From a virus (lineage: Duplodnaviria; Caudoviricetes), in the IMG/VR virus record IMGVR_UViG_640753059_000001: a DNA stretch of 64,000 bases; one strand, given 5' to 3'. The notes beneath the pieces were generated by a model that was given only the letters and a program-made list of their open reading frames with translations, was not told where the DNA came from and did no database searches. Position numbers and translations under genes: made by a program. Shown in pieces: positions 1,128 through 20,094 of the stretch. The first letter of the stretch is position 1, and each line of letters starts with the position of its first letter.

Positions 1128-2023
1128 GCGGCCCTCGCACTCAGGCGCTCAGCGAGGCCGCCGAGGTCCCATTCCTCGAGGAACGCCGCAAATGCCGCCA
1201 TGTCCGGCTCTTGCGCGCCGAGGTGTGCGAGTGCCAGGGGCACAGGCACGGCGGTGTCGAGGGTGGCTAGCGAGCGGCTGATGCGGGCGCTTGCGGCGTG
1301 ATCGGCCACCTTGGCCGCCTGCTTCTCCTTCCGGGCCGTGCCCGCGGCGATTATGTCTTCAAGGCTGCCGTGCCGGCTGACGAGTTCGGCGGCACGTTTG
1401 GCGCCGATGCCGGGAACGCCGGGGATGTTGTCGGTGGTGTCGCCGGCGAGTGCGAGCAGGTCGAGGACACCAGCCGGCGGCACGCCAAAGCGCTCCAGCA
1501 CCTCGGCCTCACGCATCGTCCTTCCCTTGCTGGCGTCGTAGAGGCAAACGCCCGTCCGATCGTCCACCAGCTGAGCGAGGTCCTTGTCGCCGGTGGCTAT
1601 GGTGACGCCAGCGCCCGACGCGACAGCCTTGCGGGTGTAGGTGGCGATCAGGTCGTCGGCCTCGTAGCCGGCAAGCTCTACGGAAGGTATCGGCAGGGCG
1701 GCACAGGCGGCGCGGACCGGCTTGAACTGCCGCTTGATGTCGTCAGGCGGCTCGTTTCGGTTCGCCTTGTAGGAGGCGAGGATGTCGTGACGCCAGTTCC
1801 GCCGCCCGGCATCGAAAATCACGGCGCGGTGCGATGCCGGCGGTACGGCGGACGTTTCGTGAAGGAGCGTCCACATCATCCAGCAGAAGCCGGAGATGGC
1901 GCCCACAGGGTGCCCGTCGCTGCGCCGTATCACGGCGGGAGCACCATAGAAAGCCCTCCAGAGGAAGGATGAGCCGTCGATCAACAGCACATGGTCGTCG
2001 GCCTGGATTGGGCGAAATGTCAC
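1124..2023 (-). CDS. Stand-alone 5'-3' exonuclease/flap endonuclease (PolI N-terminal domain type)
   Basis: LLIDGSS, YKANR, EADDLIAT, TGDKDLAQL, GDTTDNIPGVPGIG motifs; GTG start overlapping upstream TGA; no polymerase domain. Confidence 0.92.
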   Translation of the reverse strand: MTFRPIQADDHVLLIDGSSFLWRAFYGAPAVIRRSDGHPVGAISGFCWMMWTLLHETSAVPPASHRAVIFDAGRRNWRHDILASYKANRNEPPDDIKRQFKPVRAACAALPIPSVELAGYEADDLIATYTRKAVASGAGVTIATGDKDLAQLVDDRTGVCLYDASKGRTMREAEVLERFGVPPAGVLDLLALAGDTTDNIPGVPGIGAKRAAELVSRHGSLEDIIAAGTARKEKQAAKVADHAASARISRSLATLDTAVPVPLALAHLGAQEPDMAAFAAFLEEWDLGGLAERLSARAA

Positions 2024-2463
2024 CGGCGGCCTCCCATGATGTCGGCATAGCTCACCCCGCACATGCGCAGGACCTCGGCGAGAAGCCGGTCGCGGGACAT
2101 GTCGGGCAGGTGGTGGGTGATGAGGAGCAGGATCGCCTCGTCGAGGAAGGACCGGAACTCGTCCACCTTCATCGCCGCGATCGACCGCGGCACGACCTGC
2201 ATCCTGCCGTCGGTAAACTGGAAGGCCTCGACGCGATTAAGCTTCACCAGCAGTTCGGTGGCCAGTGAGCGCTTGTCGATGCCCAGCGCATTGCCGACAT
2301 GGGTCATCAGTGCCCAGAAGAAGCGGTTCGCCTTGCCCGATTTGTTCGGCATGGAAACGCAGAGCTGCGTCCCCATGGGTATGGCCGATGCGTCATCGGC
2401 GTCCTGGGGGAATGCTGGGATGAAGCCGCGCGGGGTCTTCTCCAGAAGGAAGGTGTCAGCCAT
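2020..2463 (-). CDS. DUF1367/NinB-like recombination-associated protein (distant paralog of 63336..63779)
   Basis: NRFFWALM...PRSIAAMKVDEFRSFLDEAI pattern; position after recombinase. Confidence 0.55.
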   Translation of the reverse strand: MADTFLLEKTPRGFIPAFPQDADDASAIPMGTQLCVSMPNKSGKANRFFWALMTHVGNALGIDKRSLATELLVKLNRVEAFQFTDGRMQVVPRSIAAMKVDEFRSFLDEAILLLITHHLPDMSRDRLLAEVLRMCGVSYADIMGGRR

Positions 2464-2466
2464 GGC

Positions 2467-3576
2467 TCACCCCTTCCGGCAAAGTTCGGCGAGGCGACGC
2501 TCGTAGAGCGCGGCCGCGCTCTCCCGATCCGCCATCGACCAGGTGTTGATGTCGTCTTCCTCGAAGGCCCACGTGTTTTCGAGCGCCGTCGGGTTCTGGC
2601 ACTTGCCGAGTTCGGCCCAGAGGCTGACGAGGTGGGGTGCCATGTTGGGGAAGGGCGCCGGGGAGGGAGCGCGGTCAGGGCGGGGCGCTCCCTCCCCGGG
2701 GCTTGGCGCGCGTTCTTCACGCGCGGGGACGCTCGCCACCGAGGGGGGAGGCGGGGCGGGCGCTTTCTGGGCGAGGCCAGCCGGAGCGCTGGGGCTGTTC
2801 AGCACCATATCGCGGACCTCGGGAGTGGTGACCCTGTCGAGGGGGGAAGGCAGGTCAACGTGCGGATCGGGCGGGGCGAGAGCCGCCGGCGCCGGCGCCG
2901 GTGGGGCAGGGGCCTTCTTCTCCTCGGTGATGGTCGGCGGCGGAGCGGTCGGAGGCGTCACGTCGCGGATGTCGACCTGCTCTTCCTCCAGTTCCTCGCG
3001 AAGGTAGAGGCCGCCGAGCACGTCGGCGAAGCCGTCGCGCAGCGCGAAAGCGCGGGCGCGCATCTTCATCATGCGCTCCGGGAAGCGGTGCCAGGGCGCA
3101 TCATTCAGGGCTTCATAGGTGCCGTTGCCATCCTGGCGACGGCGCTGCACCTTTTCCCGAGGGTCCCAAAGGCGAGCGCGCTTCGCATCGGCGACGCTGA
3201 AAGAACCGACGACCTGCTGGGGGTCGCCCTTGCGCTTCACGGTGCAAATGGCAACGCGATCATCACCCTCGCCGAGGATCTCCTCCTTGATGGTTTCGGC
3301 GAGCCCGGATGCGCGCACCAGGGCGATGGCAAGGTCCCCCCAGATCGTGGGGCGGCCGTTGATGACGGCGATTCGCTGCAAGGCCGTCATCGGGGGCACA
3401 CCGAGTTCGAGACCCGTCATGATGGCGATGGCGACAGCCTGGACATTCTTGAGGCCCGTCGGCGCCAGCCCCGAGCGGTGAACCGCGTCCGCGAGGTGGA
3501 AGACCTCGTCCATGGTCTGCGGGACCATGGCGCGGATCGCAGAGGACTGGACGTTGATCGGTGCAAGCGCGTTCAT
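2467..3576 (-). CDS. recT: RecT-like single-strand annealing protein
   Basis: GLELGVPPMTALQRIAVINGRP...PWHRFPERMMKMRARAFALRDGFADVLGGLY; Pro-rich linker. Confidence 0.75.
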   Translation of the reverse strand: MNALAPINVQSSAIRAMVPQTMDEVFHLADAVHRSGLAPTGLKNVQAVAIAIMTGLELGVPPMTALQRIAVINGRPTIWGDLAIALVRASGLAETIKEEILGEGDDRVAICTVKRKGDPQQVVGSFSVADAKRARLWDPREKVQRRRQDGNGTYEALNDAPWHRFPERMMKMRARAFALRDGFADVLGGLYLREELEEEQVDIRDVTPPTAPPPTITEEKKAPAPPAPAPAALAPPDPHVDLPSPLDRVTTPEVRDMVLNSPSAPAGLAQKAPAPPPPSVASVPAREERAPSPGEGAPRPDRAPSPAPFPNMAPHLVSLWAELGKCQNPTALENTWAFEEDDINTWSMADRESAAALYERRLAELCRKG

Positions 3577-3586
3577 GGGAGCCTCC

Positions 3587-4615
3587 TCAGGCCGCGACCT
3601 GCTTGGTGGTGACGGTCACGCCGGGCGGGGTGACCCCGGCCGAGATGTTGCGGCGGGCGAGCTTCAGCAGGACCTCCTTGAGATCGGCGGGCGCGTCGTT
3701 CATGCCGGCATAGAAGGCGGCGAGGGCGGGAAGGTCGGTGATGACGACGTCGGTCACGGTCCGCAGGGAGACCTTGGCACCCGTCCGGCCGGCGCCGGTG
3801 CGCTGGACCTCGGCAGCTTTGGCCGTCTCGATCGCGCGGGCCTGCACCTCTTCCGCCTGGGCGGCGGCGGCTTCGTCGCCGGCCTGCGCCGCGGCGGCGA
3901 GCCGGGTGGCTTCTTCCTGCTGGCGTCGGGCTTCCTCCGCAGCCTTCCGGGCGCGCTCCTGCTCCTCGGCCCGCAGCTTCTCCAGCCACGGCGTGATGTG
4001 GCTTTTCAGGCGCCGCACGAGTGTCTCGGCGTCCTGACGCCAGCGCCATTTCTCATCCACGAGCCGGCCGGCTTCGAGGTGGGGCGCTTTCTCGGCCTGG
4101 AAGGCCTTGTCGGCGCGGTTCTTGAGATCGCCGATACGCTTCGACCAGACTGCGACCTGGTCGGCGGCCTCCTGAGCTTCGATAGGCTTGGACAGGAACT
4201 TGTCGGCCAGCTCCTTCTCGCCCAGCAACTCAAGGCGCATGGCCTCGGCGGCATCGAGGTCGCCGCTGTTGTCGCCAGCGACGGCGCGCGGGTTCTCGAC
4301 CACATCGGGCGGAGAAGCGGTTACGGGCGCAACCGGCGCGTCGTCAGGCCAGCCCTTGCCGTCCATGAAGTCCTGGTAGGCTTCATAGGTGACCGGCTTC
4401 TTCGCCGCCCACGGCCACACAGAGGTCACTTCTACCGACGTACCGTTGAGCAGGGCCTGGACCGCGCCGGTCTCCTGGTCGCGCCAGATCGCGACGGGGT
4501 GCAGTTCGCCGCTCTTCCGCTTGACCCGGTAGAAGCCGGAATTGGGCTCGGCATCGTGGATTGCGACGGGTTCACCCGCGAGTGCGGCGCGCCAGGCGGA
4601 ATATTGGTCAGACAT
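3587..4615 (-). CDS. Coiled-coil phage protein, possibly Gp157/Gam-like
   Basis: AEKAPHLEAGRLVD, long Ala/Glu helix, C-terminal PPGVTV; adjacent to recT. Confidence 0.5.
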   Translation of the reverse strand: MSDQYSAWRAALAGEPVAIHDAEPNSGFYRVKRKSGELHPVAIWRDQETGAVQALLNGTSVEVTSVWPWAAKKPVTYEAYQDFMDGKGWPDDAPVAPVTASPPDVVENPRAVAGDNSGDLDAAEAMRLELLGEKELADKFLSKPIEAQEAADQVAVWSKRIGDLKNRADKAFQAEKAPHLEAGRLVDEKWRWRQDAETLVRRLKSHITPWLEKLRAEEQERARKAAEEARRQQEEATRLAAAAQAGDEAAAAQAEEVQARAIETAKAAEVQRTGAGRTGAKVSLRTVTDVVITDLPALAAFYAGMNDAPADLKEVLLKLARRNISAGVTPPGVTVTTKQVAA

Positions 4616-4793
4616 CGCGGTCTCCGATCATGTGCACTGGGATGCGCGGGACATCGCCGTGGGGATTGGTGTGGGGGGCGAGGGCGTCGGCCCGCCGGCG
4701 GCTCGCGCTCACGCGGCCGGCCGCATGGTGGGCGAGCACGCCGAGCGCGATCAGGACGGTGCCGAAGCAGGCGATGGCGATGAGCGCGCGCAT
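4608..4793 (-). CDS. Small membrane protein
   Basis: MRALIAIACFGTVLIALGVL hydrophobic N-terminus. Confidence 0.5.
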   Translation of the reverse strand: MRALIAIACFGTVLIALGVLAHHAAGRVSASRRRADALAPHTNPHGDVPRIPVHMIGDRDV

Positions 4794-4794
4794 G

Positions 4795-5037
4795 TCAGGC
4801 GGCACCCGGCCATTCGCCGCCGGCAAGGCCGGCAAGGATCGCGTCATTGATGCGATCGAAGCGCGCGCGTTCTAGGGCTTCCTCAAGGCCCATATCCATC
4901 TCCTGCTCGGTGAAACCGGCGGAACGCAGGAGGCGGATGACCTCGCGGCCATCGCCGAGGTCGCAGGTGGATCGGGCGAGCTCGCCCACCATGAGGTCCA
5001 CGCGATCGGAGAATGTGACCATGTCGTCCTCACTCAT
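4795..5037 (-). CDS. Hypothetical protein
   Basis: ORF in tightly packed operon. Confidence 0.55.
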   Translation of the reverse strand: MSEDDMVTFSDRVDLMVGELARSTCDLGDGREVIRLLRSAGFTEQEMDMGLEEALERARFDRINDAILAGLAGGEWPGAA

Positions 5038-5191
5038 CGCCGGACGCGCGCCGCAGCGCCGCGTCGTGGGGGAAGCCGAGCGTCCGGAACAGGTCGTACC
5101 GGGCGCGGTGCGCGGAGAAGGCCGCTTCGTTCTGGCTGGACACCGCCATGGCGGCCCATGGCCTTCGCAGCCTGCGGAGGAACCGGAGCAT
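5030..5191 (-). CDS. Hypothetical 53-aa protein
   Basis: Hand translation MLRFLRRLRRPWAA...ASGDE; TGATG coupling to XRE gene. Confidence 0.45.
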   Translation of the reverse strand: MLRFLRRLRRPWAAMAVSSQNEAAFSAHRARYDLFRTLGFPHDAALRRASGDE

Positions 5192-5583
5192 CAGGCGGCC
5201 TCGGCGTTCGGTGCGCCGGCCGTTGCTTCGTGAAGCGCACGGATCGTGTTGATTGCCGCAGCTTTGGAATGCGGGGGGAGCTGCGAGAGGAGGTCAACGG
5301 CCTCGACAGAGGCGGTGTCGCGGGCTTGGGGCAAGGCCCCGGCGTCTTTTTCCGTGCCGCGGAGGAGAAAAAGTGCCGAGACCTTGAGAAAATCGGCGAT
5401 CATCACCAGCGTGCTGCAGGCGATCCGGTTTTTGCCGTTCTCGTATTTCTGGATCTGCTGAAACGTGATCCCGAGGTGTTCGCCGAGCGCTTCCTGGCTA
5501 ACGCCGCTGCGCAGACGGGATTGCTTCACACGAAAGCCAATCACCACATCGAGTTCTTTGGTCTTATCTTTCAATGTGGGCAT
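5191..5583 (-). CDS. XRE-family HTH regulator
   Basis: GVSQEALGEHLGITFQQIQKYENGKNRI; start taken at ATG 5583 (TGATG coupling). Confidence 0.9.
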   Translation of the reverse strand: MPTLKDKTKELDVVIGFRVKQSRLRSGVSQEALGEHLGITFQQIQKYENGKNRIACSTLVMIADFLKVSALFLLRGTEKDAGALPQARDTASVEAVDLLSQLPPHSKAAAINTIRALHEATAGAPNAEAA

Positions 5584-5894
5584 CAGGCGCTCCAAGGGGC
5601 GAAAGCCGCAGCGGCGAACCGGCTGGGCATGGTGAAGAGGTCGACGGCGACATTGGCCGTCGCGGCGGATGCGAGCGCTGCCCCGAGGATGACGGCGCCG
5701 ACGTAGGGCGAGACCGGGCACCACGGCAGCGGGATCTTCGGGATGCGCCGGTCTTCGAGGTTCACGACCTCGGCAGGGGAGGGGACAGCCGCCGGCTCCG
5801 GCGAGGGAACACCTTGGGCCGGCGGCTGTGGCGCCGCCTGGGGGCGTGCGGCGCGTCTGGAATTGAAGAGGCGGGGGAAGCGCAGGATGGTCAT
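5583..5894 (-). CDS. Hypothetical Pro-rich protein with C-terminal hydrophobic segment
   Basis: MTILRFPRLF... start overlapping upstream stop (ATGA). Confidence 0.5.
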   Translation of the reverse strand: MTILRFPRLFNSRRAARPQAAPQPPAQGVPSPEPAAVPSPAEVVNLEDRRIPKIPLPWCPVSPYVGAVILGAALASAATANVAVDLFTMPSRFAAAAFAPWSA

Positions 5895-6094
5895 TCGGCG
5901 GCCTCGCGCAGCATCTCGCACTGGGAGCCGGCTTCCTGATCGAAATGAGGGACGATGCGCGGGCCGTGCGCCCGGTAGATCCGGACGGCAGTGTCCTCCG
6001 CCGAGCGGTTCGCGTTGATCAGGCCATTGAGCAGCTTTTCGAGCCACAGCCGGGTTTTGTAGAGTTCCTGCTCGGTGTGCTGTTCGATCCTCAT
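5891..6094 (-). CDS. Hypothetical protein
   Basis: ATGA coupling at both ends. Confidence 0.6.
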   Translation of the reverse strand: MRIEQHTEQELYKTRLWLEKLLNGLINANRSAEDTAVRIYRAHGPRIVPHFDQEAGSQCEMLREAAE

Positions 6095-6444
6095 GCGGCG
6101 CTCCTGTCGGCGCAGGTGACGATGCCCAGCCGGGCACGCGCGGCCGTAAGCTCGGTGCGGGCGTCGGCGGTGATGGGATTGAGCCGGGCGAGCAGCCTCG
6201 TGGGGCCCGCCTCGGGATGGGTGGGGTGCCGCCGACGCATCTCAGCAAGCGCCGCGTCCAGCCCGACGGAATGGACGAGGTCGAGGAAGATCGTCGTGAA
6301 GGCGTCGCTGTAGGAGCGGCTGTGCCAGTAGACCGGAAGGCCGGTTTCGCCCGCTCGCACTGCCGCATCGAGAGAGATGCTGTCCACGGCGCCTCGGTCG
6401 GCGACTGCGGCGTAGATCGCGGCTTTAGTTGCTGAGGCGTCCAT
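6091..6444 (-). CDS. First gene of PL operon, hypothetical
   Basis: ATG 6444 preceded by GGGGA SD, just downstream of PL. Confidence 0.6.
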   Translation of the reverse strand: MDASATKAAIYAAVADRGAVDSISLDAAVRAGETGLPVYWHSRSYSDAFTTIFLDLVHSVGLDAALAEMRRRHPTHPEAGPTRLLARLNPITADARTELTAARARLGIVTCADRSAA

Positions 6445-7121: not shown

Positions 7122-7393
7122 GAGAGCCGTGGCGTTGGGTTGAGGATCGCGAGGCGGGGATGTCTCTCAAAAAGGGCCCAGAGGTCTCCCGACGGGCATG
7201 GCTTTCAGGGCTCGCCGTAACCCTGACGACGATCGTTTGCTATCTCGCCTTTTGGCACCTTGCGCCCATCGCAACCTTTGCAATTGGGTGCATTTCCCTA
7301 GTTGTATTAATTTTGGTGGGATGGATTTATGGACGAGAAAGCCGCACTAATCGACTCTCGGAGACAAAACCTCCACCACGGACCGACCTCTAG
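7118..7393 (+). CDS. Small two-TM membrane protein
   Basis: Two hydrophobic segments; ATGA coupling. Confidence 0.55.
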   Translation: MREPWRWVEDREAGMSLKKGPEVSRRAWLSGLAVTLTTIVCYLAFWHLAPIATFAIGCISLVVLILVGWIYGRESRTNRLSETKPPPRTDL

Positions 7394-8234
7394 AAATAAC
7401 TTTCCATTCTCCATCTATGTATTTTTGTTTGATTTGTAATCGAACTCTCATTGGGATGTTTGCACGCAAAGTTTCATGAATTTCGCTACGCTCCAAAGCG
7501 GCGAGAAACTTCTTGTCTTTCATCACCGCGTTAAACGTGCCGGGAATGCCTTCTTGTCTAAATGTCCATGCCTTAGGGGCGTTCTCAAGTCGAGGCGTTA
7601 CTAAAACGACATCAAGTATTTGGGGTATTGTGCGCGCCATAGGTTTATCATCTCTGACATCAAAAAGGCCGTCGGCTTCTGCAAACTGATCAGAAGGTAT
7701 CGTCACTGCCGGCCTCCAATCGTCACTTGTTGGAACGCCGGTGCCGATGCCAGTGATTTTTCTGTCTCTCGGAGCCTCCTTATACATTTGTTGGCGGTGC
7801 ATTTTAACCGCATCAGTCTTCGATGTTTTTTCAAATATTTCGATCAGCTCGCGCTTTTGCGTCTCAGAAAAGCCATCGTTCCCCATATAGTAATTAAGTG
7901 TTGGTATTGCTGATGTTGGTACAACAACTGCTAATCCTATAGCGAGGCGGAAAATTACAGGTACTTTTTTCCACCCGTCGACGACTTGCTGGGCAAGGTC
8001 GTTTGCCTTGGAGCGTTCAATTTTGGCGATCCAATTTGACGACCCGGGTTTGGCGGCAACCAGCGAGACGCGGTACTCCCAAGTGGGATCGGCTATCGAT
8101 GCCGCGGCTTTCAGGCCCTGGGCCCATTGAATGGCCGCCGCTGCCACGACCTCAAGATCGGCCAATTGGCCCGGCTTGGTATCAAAATACAGGCTTAGTT
8201 CACCGGCATCGGCAAATTCTGCAATGTCCACCAT
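7347..8234 (-). CDS. AT-rich accessory protein downstream of cI (rex position)
   Basis: 295 aa ORF 25 nt after cI stop, visibly lower GC. Confidence 0.75.
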   Translation of the reverse strand: MVDIAEFADAGELSLYFDTKPGQLADLEVVAAAAIQWAQGLKAAASIADPTWEYRVSLVAAKPGSSNWIAKIERSKANDLAQQVVDGWKKVPVIFRLAIGLAVVVPTSAIPTLNYYMGNDGFSETQKRELIEIFEKTSKTDAVKMHRQQMYKEAPRDRKITGIGTGVPTSDDWRPAVTIPSDQFAEADGLFDVRDDKPMARTIPQILDVVLVTPRLENAPKAWTFRQEGIPGTFNAVMKDKKFLAALERSEIHETLRANIPMRVRLQIKQKYIDGEWKVISRGRSVVEVLSPRVD

Positions 8235-10044: not shown

Positions 10045-10281
10045 ATGTCCGAATTCACCCCCGTCACCACCATCGAAGACCTCATGTCACTCGACACCGT
10101 CGAGATGGTCGACGGCTATTGGGATGGCTGGCACGGCGCTCCCGAGCCCGGCAACAACCGGTCCCGCGCCTACTGGCACGGCTGGAGGAACGGCGCTGCC
10201 GATGCTGGGCACCGGGAGAAGGACGCCCACCAGATGGAACTGGCGCGGGCGTTCGTCGCCTTTCGGCGGAGGGCTGCCTAA
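10045..10281 (+). CDS. Hypothetical protein
   Basis: GYWDG...NRSRAYWHGWRNG; coupled. Confidence 0.7.
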   Translation: MSEFTPVTTIEDLMSLDTVEMVDGYWDGWHGAPEPGNNRSRAYWHGWRNGAADAGHREKDAHQMELARAFVAFRRRAA

Positions 10282-10658
10282 TGAAGCGCACGCCCGAAGC
10301 CGTCGCCCGGATGAAGCGCCTCGCCGAGGCGGGAGCGTTGACCAGCACGATTGCTCGCGACATCGGCGTCTCGCCCGCCTCCATCATCAAATGGGCCAAG
10401 CGCGAAGGCGTCCGGCTGATGACGCGATCGGAGGCTGGCAAGCGCCGGGCGGAGGACCCTGGCGAGCGCTCGCGGCTGGTGGAACTTTCCCGCCGGGGAG
10501 GGGAGGCGCTGAAGCGCAAGTTGGGGCTGTCTTCCATCGTTCCGCACTGGGTGCCGAGCGATCTGAGCGACGACTATGCCGATTTCGCCGTGCTCTATGG
10601 CGAGGAGTGCGCCGCCTCGCGCATCCGCCAGATGAAGGCGGAGGCGCTGACGTGCTGA
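10281..10658 (+). CDS. HTH protein
   Basis: TSTIARDIGVSPASIIKWAKREG; TAATG coupling. Confidence 0.65.
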   Translation: MKRTPEAVARMKRLAEAGALTSTIARDIGVSPASIIKWAKREGVRLMTRSEAGKRRAEDPGERSRLVELSRRGGEALKRKLGLSSIVPHWVPSDLSDDYADFAVLYGEECAASRIRQMKAEALTC

Positions 10659-11202
10659 CCTCACCCGCCCGGCACCTCGTGGCTGACCCTCATCCGGCGC
10701 GCATCGGCGCATGCGCTCGTCATAGCGTCTGCGGTGATAGGCATGGACGGCCGCAGGTATCCGGCCTCCGCCTCGATGTAGCGGAGGAGGCTTTCCCCGC
10801 GGTCGCTGCGTTCGCGCGCGATCCCGGCGAGCAGCGTTGCGAACATCCGCGTCGTCCCAATCGACGGCATCCTCTTCTCCATGATGGGGCGCCGGCCGGC
10901 ACTGAGCGCGACTTCTCCGCCGGCCGGCGCACGGGCGGCGGCGCGAGGGGCGATGCGCGCGGCCCGATCCGATTTGAGCTTGTCCACGATGGCGCCCGCC
11001 AGGGCACCGATCGGGATGAAACCGTCGTTCCCCAGGTCGGCTTCCTCCCGACCCACTTCGGCGTGCCCGGTTCCCGCCGGGCCGCCGCTTCTATCCGCGC
11101 TCGCCGCAGCACGTCCTGCAAGATCATCTGCGGTGAGCAACATCGTTCCGTCTCCAAAGCAACGTCTCCGATGTCCTCAAGATGGCACATCGGAGATAGG
11201 CC

Positions 11203-11571
11203 GTGGCGGGTAAGTCACCCACGCGCGCGGGTAAATCACCCGCGCCAAATCCCGGAGCAAAGGTGATGTCTTCGGTTGCGGAAGCGAGAAGCCTGATCAT
11301 CCAGATCGCTGGACCCATCTCGCTCGGAGAGCGGGTCAAGACTGTTCTCGCTTTCGTTGCTGAACGCGCCGGACTTCCGGAACGCCGCATTCGAGGCATT
11401 TGGCATCGCGAGGCAAAAGCGGTGCTCGCCGACGAGCTCGAAGCCCTGAAACGCGCTGCCGAACTGCGCCATCGAGAAGAGGCCATCCATGCCCGCAATC
11501 TGGAAACCAGGGCTCGTCTGGCGTGTCGCGGCGCCGCTGCTGCCGGGCGGGTGGAAGGTCCGGATTTCTGA
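11203..11571 (+). CDS. CII-like/HTH regulator (start may be 11266)
   Basis: VAERAGLPERRIRGIWHREA helix-turn-helix-like segment. Confidence 0.55.
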   Translation: MAGKSPTRAGKSPAPNPGAKVMSSVAEARSLIIQIAGPISLGERVKTVLAFVAERAGLPERRIRGIWHREAKAVLADELEALKRAAELRHREEAIHARNLETRARLACRGAAAAGRVEGPDF

Positions 11572-18504: not shown

Positions 18505-19044
18505 ATGGCAAAGAGGCGTGGACGCATCTCGGAACAGAACCAGGTCGGCCGCATGGTCCTGCCAGAGGACCGCATCCGCAACGGGATGATGGACGGCCCC
18601 TCATATCGCAGGACCAGGATGCGGGAGAAGGCGCCCCGCGCCTCTGCCATCCCCCGCGCGCCAGTGTCCACCGAAGATGTGGAGAGGCGCGTCATGCGAG
18701 CGATGAAGACGCTCCGGGCTCTTCCCGATAAGGAAGCCAGATTCCACCGTGTCCAGTCACAGTGGCCATCCCATGTCCAAGAGGCAATGGACGCCTACGG
18801 CAGCGTAGAGGCCGTGATCCCGCGCTTCAACCCGACGCCGTTCGATGTCACGGATTGCCTCCATGCCCTAACGTGGGTGAGGCATCTCGAAAAGAACGAC
18901 TGGAAGATACTGTGGTGGCGGTCGTTCGAGTTGTCCTTCGGGACCATCGCGATGTATATCGGGCGCTCAGATGAGACCGCGAGACGGCGCTATAGGGACA
19001 TCATGATCGATGTATGGACCGCTGCAAATGGTCTGGCGACGTGA
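18505..19044 (+). CDS. Late transcription regulator (Q position; DUF6362-like, C-terminal HTH)
   Basis: AMKTLRALPD..SQWP..ALTWV..ILWWRS..SFGTIAMYIGRSDETARRRY; last gene before ncRNA/terminase. Confidence 0.65.
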   Translation: MAKRRGRISEQNQVGRMVLPEDRIRNGMMDGPSYRRTRMREKAPRASAIPRAPVSTEDVERRVMRAMKTLRALPDKEARFHRVQSQWPSHVQEAMDAYGSVEAVIPRFNPTPFDVTDCLHALTWVRHLEKNDWKILWWRSFELSFGTIAMYIGRSDETARRRYRDIMIDVWTAANGLAT

Positions 19045-19270
19045 TGTTCAGATGAGGCCGGCGCTTCGTCTTTGAGTTATCCACAGGAAAGCGAAAATTC
19101 AGTCTTGTTTTTTCGTGGCAAATGTGGCTTAAGGGATATCGAAGCAATTCAAAATGGGCCGCAGTGCGGCGAGGCGTTGCGCGCGCGGCAATATGAAGGT
19201 TTTGAGCCGAGGCTCATCCAGAAGGTACAGTGCCGCGACCGAGGCCTCTTGTGATTCTCGCGGCCGGACT

Positions 19271-19369
19271 GGCAGACGAAACCGAGTAGTACGCCCGGAC
19301 GCCGGTTCGAATCCGGCCAGTCGAAAGGCTGTAGCTCAGTGGATAGAGCGGTGGCGGAAACCCGGGCCA
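19271..19369 (+). ncRNA. Arm-permuted tRNA-mimic RNA (YrlA/Y-RNA-like topology)
   Basis: T-arm 19301-19317, GAAA-capped stem 19318-19331, D-arm 19334-19349, closing stem 19293-19298/19362-19367, ends GCCA. Confidence 0.7.
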
Positions 19370-19371
19370 AT

Positions 19372-19573
19372 AGTTTCGCGCTACGGCGCAGTGTAATCCC
19401 TGAGCGAAAGCTCGTGTTGAAGCAAGGCGCGCGATAGTGCCGAGTGGAGCGGGTGAGTAGGTGACGCGGCACGGCCCCGCGATGGACCGCCGGGAAGCTA
19501 CGGCGACAGGGTGAGGACGGCGCAAGCCGGTGGCCAAGGCCTTTGCCTCCCCCGAGTTTCGCGCTACGGCGCA
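19372..19573 (+). repeat. 19-nt direct repeat AGTTTCGCGCTACGGCGCA x2
   Basis: Exact copies at 19372-19390 and 19555-19573; AGTTTCG again at 19669-19675; each full copy has a c(UACG)g hairpin. Confidence 0.9.
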
Positions 19574-19774
19574 CACGAGTTCGACGCGGTTCCGAAAGCC
19601 GCCATTGGAACGCGAAAACGGCGACTGTGGCGTTGGCCGTGCCTCGTGGAAATGGCCCCGCGTCGATCAGTTTCGAGAGAGCGCCAAGCGCCGGCCTCTC
19701 GGGAGAGCGTTCCTCCAGGCTTGGAGGCGAAGCCCGTGGATTTACCCGCGGCCGCAGGGGTGGCTTCCCTGCGC
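19391..19774 (+). ncRNA. Structured RNA domains of unknown class
   Basis: GNRA hairpins (GAGC-GAAA-GCTC, CGGC-GCAA-GCCG), long-range stems (GTGCCG/CGGCAC, TCGACGCGG/CCGCGTCGA); no convincing ORF. Confidence 0.55.
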
Positions 19775-19779
19775 TATGC

Positions 19780-19854
19780 ATCGGTGTGTTGTAGTGGAAG
19801 CATGCGGGTCTCCAAAACCCTGCGGCGGGGGTTCAAATCCTCCCACCTTTGCCA
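19780..19854 (+). tRNA. tRNA-Trp(CCA), degenerate
   Basis: Anticodon loop CTCCAAA, T-arm GGGGG-TTCAAAT-CCTCC, encoded G-CCA; two acceptor-stem mismatches. Confidence 0.75.
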
Positions 19855-19869
19855 ATTTGGACTAAGGCC

Positions 19870-20094
19870 ATGTCCCGTTCTCGCAGACATACTCCGATCT
19901 TCGGAAATACCTGCTCAGAGAGTGAGCGGCAGTTCAAGGCATTCGAGCATCGCCGGGAGCGCAGAGCCATCCGGGCCGCGCTGCCTGACGACGACCTGCC
20001 GGCGCCCAAGGCCTATGGGAACCCATGGGCTGGTCCCAAGGACGGCAGGCACTACTGGGGTTCAAAGGCGCGTGACAAGGACATGAGGAAGTAG
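19870..20094 (+). CDS. Small Arg/Lys-rich protein
   Basis: MSRSRRHTPIFG...HRRERR...NPWAGPKDG; 15 nt after tRNA. Confidence 0.75.
   Translation: MSRSRRHTPIFGNTCSESERQFKAFEHRRERRAIRAALPDDDLPAPKAYGNPWAGPKDGRHYWGSKARDKDMRK

Follow-up and report, generated by a model that had tools for sequence, protein, structure and literature searches.

It is their partnership with Ro60 that defines Y RNAs. They are modular, one module binding Ro60 and the other an effector (bioRxiv 10.1101/312249), and known Y RNAs contact the KH/S1 domains of PNPase. RNAs of the YrlA type (Rfam RF02553; Chen et al. 2014, PMC4201824; structure in Wang et al. 2018, bioRxiv 10.1101/312249) have a Ro60/rsr gene within about 4 kb on the same strand and carry the Ro60 site in their terminal stem; the GNCGAA core of the 5' motif is the presumed site of contact with Ro60 (PMC4201824), and the still unknown effector of the tRNA-like module presumably binds the D and T stems (bioRxiv 10.1101/312249). 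Ro60 is also encoded by phages, namely Thermus phage phiLo with Yrl1/Yrl2 (PMC12135203), mycobacteriophages (PMC4201824) and Bas63, as gp130 (PMC11482910), and phage Y-type RNAs with phage Ro60 have been proposed to serve in capture of host PNPase or in counter-defence (PMC12135203, PMC4201824, PMC11482910). In gel shifts, phage Y-like RNAs bind PNPase without Ro60 (PMC12135203). Our literature search found phage Y RNAs solely alongside phage Ro60. The locus described here resembles these systems in having a phage-borne Y-type RNA with the CGAA motif, whereas they encode their own Ro60 beside the RNAs and neither the prophage under study nor its complete relative does.

We analysed a stretch of 64,000 nucleotides (hereafter the window), which is G000:C1:4024496-4088495 of a 5.6-Mb, 100%-complete bacterial genome. 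According to family annotation, the genes around the tRNA mimic are prophage genes: upstream lie those for SSB, a DnaT-like protein, a methyltransferase and a DUF6362 protein (18505-19041), downstream those for the terminase large subunit, portal and MuF, and the mimic is located between the replication and packaging modules, with a tRNA-Trp 410 nt further downstream. No ORF with a family match was found at 19045-19870, and ORFs overlapping the RNA region had no Pfam family. Around the mimic, ARAGORN and Rfam at gathering level gave only the tRNA-Trp (19780-19854). A sigma-70 consensus scan of the mimic region found no promoter, and a terminator scan found none on the + strand and a single terminator-like match on the minus strand, which was within chance. 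As part of the joint best explanation set out below, the mimic is predicted to be a real, self-contained small-RNA gene of about 110 nt, extending roughly over 19260-19369 (+).

Relatives of the mimic were recovered through its 5' flank. One viral locus (L211), located in a complete 43.5-kb phage, carries the mimic's own 5' flank, and its RNA is 73% identical to that of the window over 92 nt; apart from L211, the matches of the GAGTA-anchored viral scan were tandem tRNAs. A pattern built on the flank shared with L211 was used to find the remaining relatives, and in metagenomes it matched L274, L275, L278, L280 and L282, together with a more distant sequence, L281. Since L282 is the same sequence as L211, and L283 is nearly identical to L278, the relatives come down to five distinct sequences besides that of the window, one in a complete phage and four on metagenome contigs. 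In the genomes of 185,579 species, the same pattern found nothing related besides the window's own element, and the matches on genome contigs (Enterovibrio tRNA-like chains, a Pseudomonas sequence and an actinobacterial sequence) were rejected as unrelated. A covariance model built from the window sequence only recovers all relatives with E-values of 1e-9 to 1e-15 (43-62 bits). Covariance model R1 yielded only tandem tRNAs or weak false matches (L299, L300, L301) in 150 host-family genomes. BLAST of the mimic region against a phage collection gave tRNA-Trp matches only, a DNA search of 200 host-family genomes gave a Ro60-linked array in G036 and one T-arm match with no relatives, and no permuted element was present within 1.5 kb at 29 loci with DUF6362 homologues in the host's order. 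As a separate observation, head-to-tail chains of anticodon-less tRNA-like units, in which a T arm, a short capped stem, a D arm and a short linker are followed by the next T arm, occur in viral sequences (L172, L174, L176, L180, L188, L207, L214, L247 and L256) and in Enterovibrio genomes (L269-L273); these chains are neither single mimics nor ordinary tandem tRNAs.

The core of the mimic (19275-19369, +) consists of a T arm, a GAAA-capped 5-bp acceptor-like hairpin, UA and a D arm (Table 1). The first-pass annotation had described these parts, a GCCAAU ending and the absence of an anticodon arm, and all of them were found where it had placed them; ARAGORN is silent at the mimic. The same six letters follow the acceptor end of the tRNA-Trp (19851-56), as it had also pointed out. 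The T and D loops that a tRNA elbow requires are present, as are U8, A14 and the 15-48 pair, and the anticodon stem is replaced by a short irregular helix, the AGUA/GAA internal loop and then an outer helix, P2, which opens into the single-stranded 5' GACGAAAC and the 3' (N)CCA. The CCA end recurs in the family, where (N)CCA follows P2 in five of the six members and CCU in the sixth. The loop of the capped stem is GAAA, GCAA or GCAA-like in the relatives, and P0 is replaced in L278, L282 and L280 by CCGC-UAGCCG-GCGG or CGGGC-UAGUCG-GCCCG (by eye). Upstream of the mimic, GATTCTCGG-like and CGAC motifs recur in all relatives, and the block that contains them in the window is possibly the mimic's own promoter. 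At the other end, GUUUCG (19373-78) is able to form 6 bp with CGAAAC (19277-82) in the window only; neither it nor the following hairpin has a counterpart in L274, L275, L278, L280 or L282.

Table 1. Features of the tRNA mimic and its flanks, with the pairing of each helix over the six aligned family sequences
Feature	Position	Strand	Sequence and remarks	Cells paired	Pairs changed on both sides
Upstream block	19224-19258	+	GGTACAG...CGACC...GATTCT; similarity to L274 starts at 19224, none further upstream		
P0, small 5' hairpin	19263-19273	+	GCC-GGACU-GGC; identical in L274 (read by eye)		
5' GACGAAAC	19275-19282	+	identical in 6/6 family sequences, partly imposed by a search pattern that required it, and in the Ro60-linked Y RNA of L281		
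P2, 5' strand	19282-19287	+	CCGAGU; pairs with 19360-19365, one A-C mismatch in the window	96.7% (five core pairs, 19282-86 with 19361-65)	2
5' half of sarcin-ricin/loop-E-type internal loop (putative)	19288-19291	+	AGUA; opposite GAA in 6/6		
Inner helix, 5' strand	19292-19295	+	CGCC; pairs with GGCG 19353-56		
Variable-loop equivalent	19296-19300	+	CGGAC; last C is the counterpart of nt 48		
T arm	19301-19317	+	GCCGG 19301-05, UUCGAAU 19306-12, CCGGC 19313-17	100%	2
Sealed acceptor-like stem	19318-19331	+	CAGUC 19318-22, GAAA 19323-26, GGCUG 19327-31	100%	3
U8 A9 and D arm	19332-19349	+	UA 19332-33, GCUC 19334-37, AGUGGAUA 19338-45, GAGC 19346-49	100% (D stem)	0 (invariant)
Inner helix, 3' strand, then GAA of the sarcin-ricin-type loop	19353-19359	+	GGCG 19353-56, GAA 19357-59		
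P2, 3' strand	19360-19365	+	ACCCGG; partner of 19282-19287		
G and CCA tail	19366-19369	+	GCCAAU at 19366-71; mature 3' end likely here (predicted)		
GUUUCG and hairpin	19373-19389	+	GCGC-UACG-GCGC; repeated at 19556; particular to the window, not the family		

The six distinct sequences, which represent about three lineages, were aligned with the window-only covariance model, MAFFT being unable to align the group with an insertion in the D loop. In this alignment, which favours the model's structure because it was fitted to the model, 91.7% of cells were paired compared to 79.6% in shuffles, and pairing fell to 29-53% when partners were slid as a control. Eight pairs changed on both sides overall, a number that is small because there are only six distinct sequences from about three lineages and that, like the paired fraction, was reached by 0 of 500 shuffles; counts for the single helices are given in Table 1. 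The Levitt pair 15-48 also covaries (G-C in five distinct sequences, A-U in L274). Concerning the inner helix, the stem CGCC/GGUG reported by cmscan reached no more than 50% paired cells, and we adopted instead the register CGCC/GGCG, which was paired in 69.6%, and whose first pair, closing the AGUA/GAA loop, is C-G in five sequences and A-U in L275, a compensatory change. The loop itself was found by anchoring on two invariant words. The D-loop insertion is structured and about 45 nt long (L278 1566-1686 (-), L280 1595-1715 (-), L282 2828-2948 (+)), and its inner hairpin covaries between CCGCGG/CCGCGG and CCGCAG/CUGCGG. On these comparisons, the predicted identity of the element as a conserved tRNA mimic is well supported.

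Thermodynamic folding was uninformative, the mimic folding no better than shuffles (z of -0.5 and -0.8), and two details of the first-pass fold did not stand up. The enclosing helix GCCCGG/CCGGGC does exist in the window but is not conserved in the family (62.9% of cells paired, against 49-51% in slid controls), and we rejected it. Of the two folds that had been envisaged, the alternative one, pairing GACTGGC with GCCAGTC, is indeed the thermodynamic minimum in the window; it appears not to be conserved: the nearest relative, L274, has a 4-bp remnant only (by eye), and in the other relatives the stretch upstream forms a local hairpin. It could also be asked whether the element is functionless debris, in which the 3' half of a decayed tRNA has been joined to the 5' half of its neighbour or a tRNA attachment site has been copied, since tandem tRNA genes yield the same order of T loop and then D arm and dominate loose pattern matches. 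Fusion of two decayed tRNA halves, an outcome that the first-pass annotation had kept in view, is contradicted by the three compensatory pairs in the GNRA-capped stem and by non-tRNA flanks conserved across unrelated phages, and an origin as an attachment-site copy was rejected because neither the T arm nor the D arm of the mimic occurs in any host tRNA. We therefore regard debris as scarcely credible: the mimic is neither chance nor tRNA debris.

Other described RNAs share single traits with the mimic. In permuted tRNA genes and two-piece tmRNA the T arm is likewise encoded ahead of the D arm, but the mimic differs from the former in having no anticodon arm and an acceptor sealed by a 4-nt loop instead of an excised spacer, and from the latter in having no tag reading frame (ARAGORN reported none; cyano_tmRNA scored 8.8 bits, E 7.6). 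It differs from tRNA in that its acceptor stem, sealed by GAAA, is not open and chargeable. The pair of strands AGUA/GAA is the canonical sarcin-ricin sequence (PMC1865062), and in all six sequences AGUA faces GAA with a Watson-Crick pair on one side and a purine-A or U-A on the other, as in the sarcin-ricin or loop E (bulged-G) motif. The mimic thus has a putative sarcin-ricin-type internal loop, matching the rRNA motif by sequence and position alone and standing in a small phage RNA.

The genes that flank the RNA were compared as well. No ORF was in common among the flanking proteins of the relatives (E 1e-5), and the whole L211 phage had no protein in common with the window (E 1e-4). Since the flanking genes are different in every relative, the RNA appears to move alone, as an independent mobile module, and the lack of a common protein in both comparisons suggests that selection acts on the RNA alone. 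A tRNA follows the mimic in two of the six sequences and none is nearby in the other four. One may suppose that the mimic acts only in cis, as tRNA-shaped punctuation that recruits RNase P, RNase Z or 3' exonucleases, by which the transcript with the phage tRNA and the late (packaging) genes would be cut and stabilized, and has no function in trans. Its position between the two modules and upstream of the tRNA-Trp agrees with this, as do a tRNA-Ser that begins 4 nt past the mimic in L275, an apparent start codon directly after P2 in L274 (by eye), the succession of a helix and NCCA, which is the form of a matured tRNA end, and the cutting of Mycobacterium smegmatis YrlA by RNase P (PMC4201824). 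However, most of the six sequences are without a nearby tRNA, what lies downstream changes from relative to relative, RNase P acts poorly on a sealed acceptor stem of 5 bp, and GACGAAAC and the AGUA/GAA loop would be superfluous for punctuation, so that a purely cis-acting role seems unlikely to us.

The closest described RNA is YrlA, the topology of which the first-pass annotation had recognized in the order of the arms. Rfam YrlA matches 19276-19382 over the full model length with 38.1 bits and an E-value of 1.2e-6 under permissive thresholds, and it is the only non-tRNA Rfam family with an E-value below 1 at the mimic; the Infernal comparison thus bore out the topology, although the score lies below the gathering cut-off of 69. 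The order of parts is that of YrlA: the 5' CGAA motif, UAY, variable loop, T arm, sealed acceptor-like stem, UA, D arm and the return strand. The nucleotides of the tRNA tertiary pairs are also the same, the covarying 15-48 pair included, an irregular ('kinked') stem replaces the anticodon stem in both, and such RNAs occur in phages as well. As for two short motifs, the YrlA 5' motif is GNCGAA(N0-1)G, and in the mimic family GACGAA is invariant and the next G is 2 nt away in the relatives or 3 nt in the window; at the start of the V loop, where YrlA has YUAY, the mimic has GUAC (GUAA in L275), with UAY kept and G as the first base. The family has no conserved helix between its 5' and 3' ends, CGAAAC/GUUUCG being possible in the window only, and the mimic also has features outside the YrlA description. 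A YrlA assignment was tested on three points, the Rfam threshold, Ro60 linkage and the terminal stem, and the mimic differs from YrlA on each.

As to Ro60, neither the TROVE and vWA_Ro60 profiles nor tblastn with two Rsr proteins (alphaproteobacterial or metagenomic) found anything in the whole 100%-complete host genome, window included, and TROVE was absent from the complete 43.5-kb L211 phage, in agreement with the earlier claim that the mimic is an orphan. These were sequence searches, which a very divergent Ro60-like protein or another partner could escape; as positive controls, they detected Rsr beside YrlA-like RNAs in G036, Ro60 in L281 and TROVE in 5 of 5 phage records carrying classical YrlA. 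Searches of the complete host genome for RtcB and RtcA were likewise negative. The 380-aa ORF at 10124-11263 (+) was considered as a possible cryptic Ro60; it has no PDB relative, and its single-sequence structure model was unusable at pLDDT 40. This ORF and a second one of 294 aa at 7347-8231 (-) have no Pfam or PHROG family. Two of the control loci are described here in their own right. In the host-family genome G036, three tandem YrlA-like RNAs flanked by GUUACUUCG and CGCYUGUUCC adjoin a TROVE+vWA gene (L003/L005, G036:C1:4703168-4706224), and the metagenome contig L281 bears a cellular operon at 1788-6314 (-) composed of rsr (TROVE and vWA_Ro60), a Y RNA, rtcB and rtcA, in which the Y RNA is minimal and closed by GACGAAAC/GUUUCGUC.

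Sealed-acceptor elements with the T arm before the D arm are common in viral contigs (more than 110 stretches among the matches listed). Most of those among the matches listed are flanked by 5' GUUAC(U/C)U and a 3' CGCUUGUUCC-type sequence, and at least 24 loci of this flanked type, again among the matches listed, have a Ro60-like tblastn match. Sealed-acceptor mimics of another kind, L048, L071 and L164, lie in complete viral genomes (G593, G595 and G596) that are free of TROVE and vWA_Ro60; with these three further phage genomes, mimics without Ro60 appear to be recurrent in phages.

These data bear on whether the mimic could be an ordinary, Ro60-dependent Y RNA, which would sponge or redirect host Ro60-PNPase wherever Rsr/Ro60 exists and be idle cargo in the present lysogen. 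GACGAAAC includes GNCGAA, the core of the YrlA Ro60-contact motif (as defined in PMC4201824), and recurs identically in the rsr-Y RNA-rtcB-rtcA operon of L281, and CGAAAC/GUUUCG would give a Y-RNA-like closing stem in the window. However, none of the five phage relatives shows such a closing stem, the flanks GUUACUUC... and ...CGCUUGUUCC of the classical, Ro60-linked phage copies of YrlA are missing, the Rfam score is far below the cut-off, and vWA_Ro60 is found in 2 of 200 sampled host-family genomes and in none of four from the genus, with no Ro60 in the host or the complete related phage. We consider Ro60 dependence improbable, and titration of host Ro60-PNPase, one of the functions suggested by the first-pass annotation, cannot apply in this host because no Ro60 was detected there.

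The mimic has small non-coding and coding neighbours, with which it had been proposed to form one system. Immediately downstream is RNA2 (19392-19589), a non-coding element of about 200 nt with no Rfam family and a fold z-score of +1.0, of which a 96%-identical copy is present at G000:C1:4106884-4107081 (L293 485-682), in a second prophage of the same genome about 63 kb downstream, upstream of an apparent terminase small-subunit gene (by eye) and without any mimic. Both copies occupy a non-coding region between early and packaging genes and end with GUUUCG and a GCGC-UNCG-GCGC hairpin (UACG in the window, UUCG in the second prophage). A 74-aa basic protein nearby has no Pfam or PHROG family. 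Since the five relatives are without these neighbours, neither the adjacent RNAs nor the basic protein belongs to the mimic element, and the proposal of one system did not hold. Still further downstream, a third short unit (19617-19680) is bracketed by CGAAAAC and CAGUUUCG (by eye), which resemble the CGAAA.../...UUUCG brackets of RNA1 and RNA2. A variant of the one-system proposal would make the mimic the RNA half of a two-part module, its partner being encoded elsewhere in the phage as a divergent Ro60-like ring, a HEPN-type nuclease or the basic protein itself. Several window ORFs without a family assignment leave room for such a partner, but the protein comparisons described above, among the flanks of the relatives and between the related phage and the window, found none in common, and the basic protein has neither an assigned family nor a counterpart beside the five relatives; we accordingly rate a two-part module as very unlikely.

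The reading that we favour, with moderate confidence, is that the mimic is a small-RNA gene belonging to a rare family of horizontally mobile phage RNAs, a Ro60-independent variant of the YrlA-type Y RNAs. As Ro60 was found in neither phage nor host, the RNA probably works via another host factor. It would be transcribed from its own upstream signals and trimmed at the 3' side back to the CCA beside P2, as occurs with tRNA ends, and P2 together with the CCA end would define and protect the 3' terminus. The mature RNA would act in trans as a stable protein-binding RNA, a decoy or an adaptor: a host protein recognizing tRNA shape would be bound through the elbow together with the conserved D and T stems, and a second contact, one that depends on sequence, would be made by the GACGAAAC tail and the sarcin-ricin-type loop. 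The preferred target would be host RNA-decay or tRNA-processing machinery, for instance the KH/S1 domains of PNPase, an enzyme that is present in the host, and this machinery would be redirected or blunted during phage growth. Both the partner and the effect named here are guesses. A decoy for anticodon nucleases, another function that had been suggested, is unlikely since the mimic has no anticodon arm to bind or cut. More tentatively, and with the odds rather against it, the family may belong to a broader class of tRNA-shaped phage RNAs, free-standing, horizontally mobile, descended from or converged on Y RNAs and working without Ro60, which would dock onto a host tRNA- or RNA-processing protein via the elbow and onto a second factor via the GACGAAAC tail and the sarcin-ricin-type loop.

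The conservation of a YrlA-like tRNA half in phages whose hosts are without Ro60 points to an independent function of this half, and the mimic offers a clean, Ro60-free system in which its partner could be sought by pull-down. It also strengthens the case that small structured RNAs are exchanged among phages as independent modules, which may serve to manipulate host RNA decay or tRNA handling.
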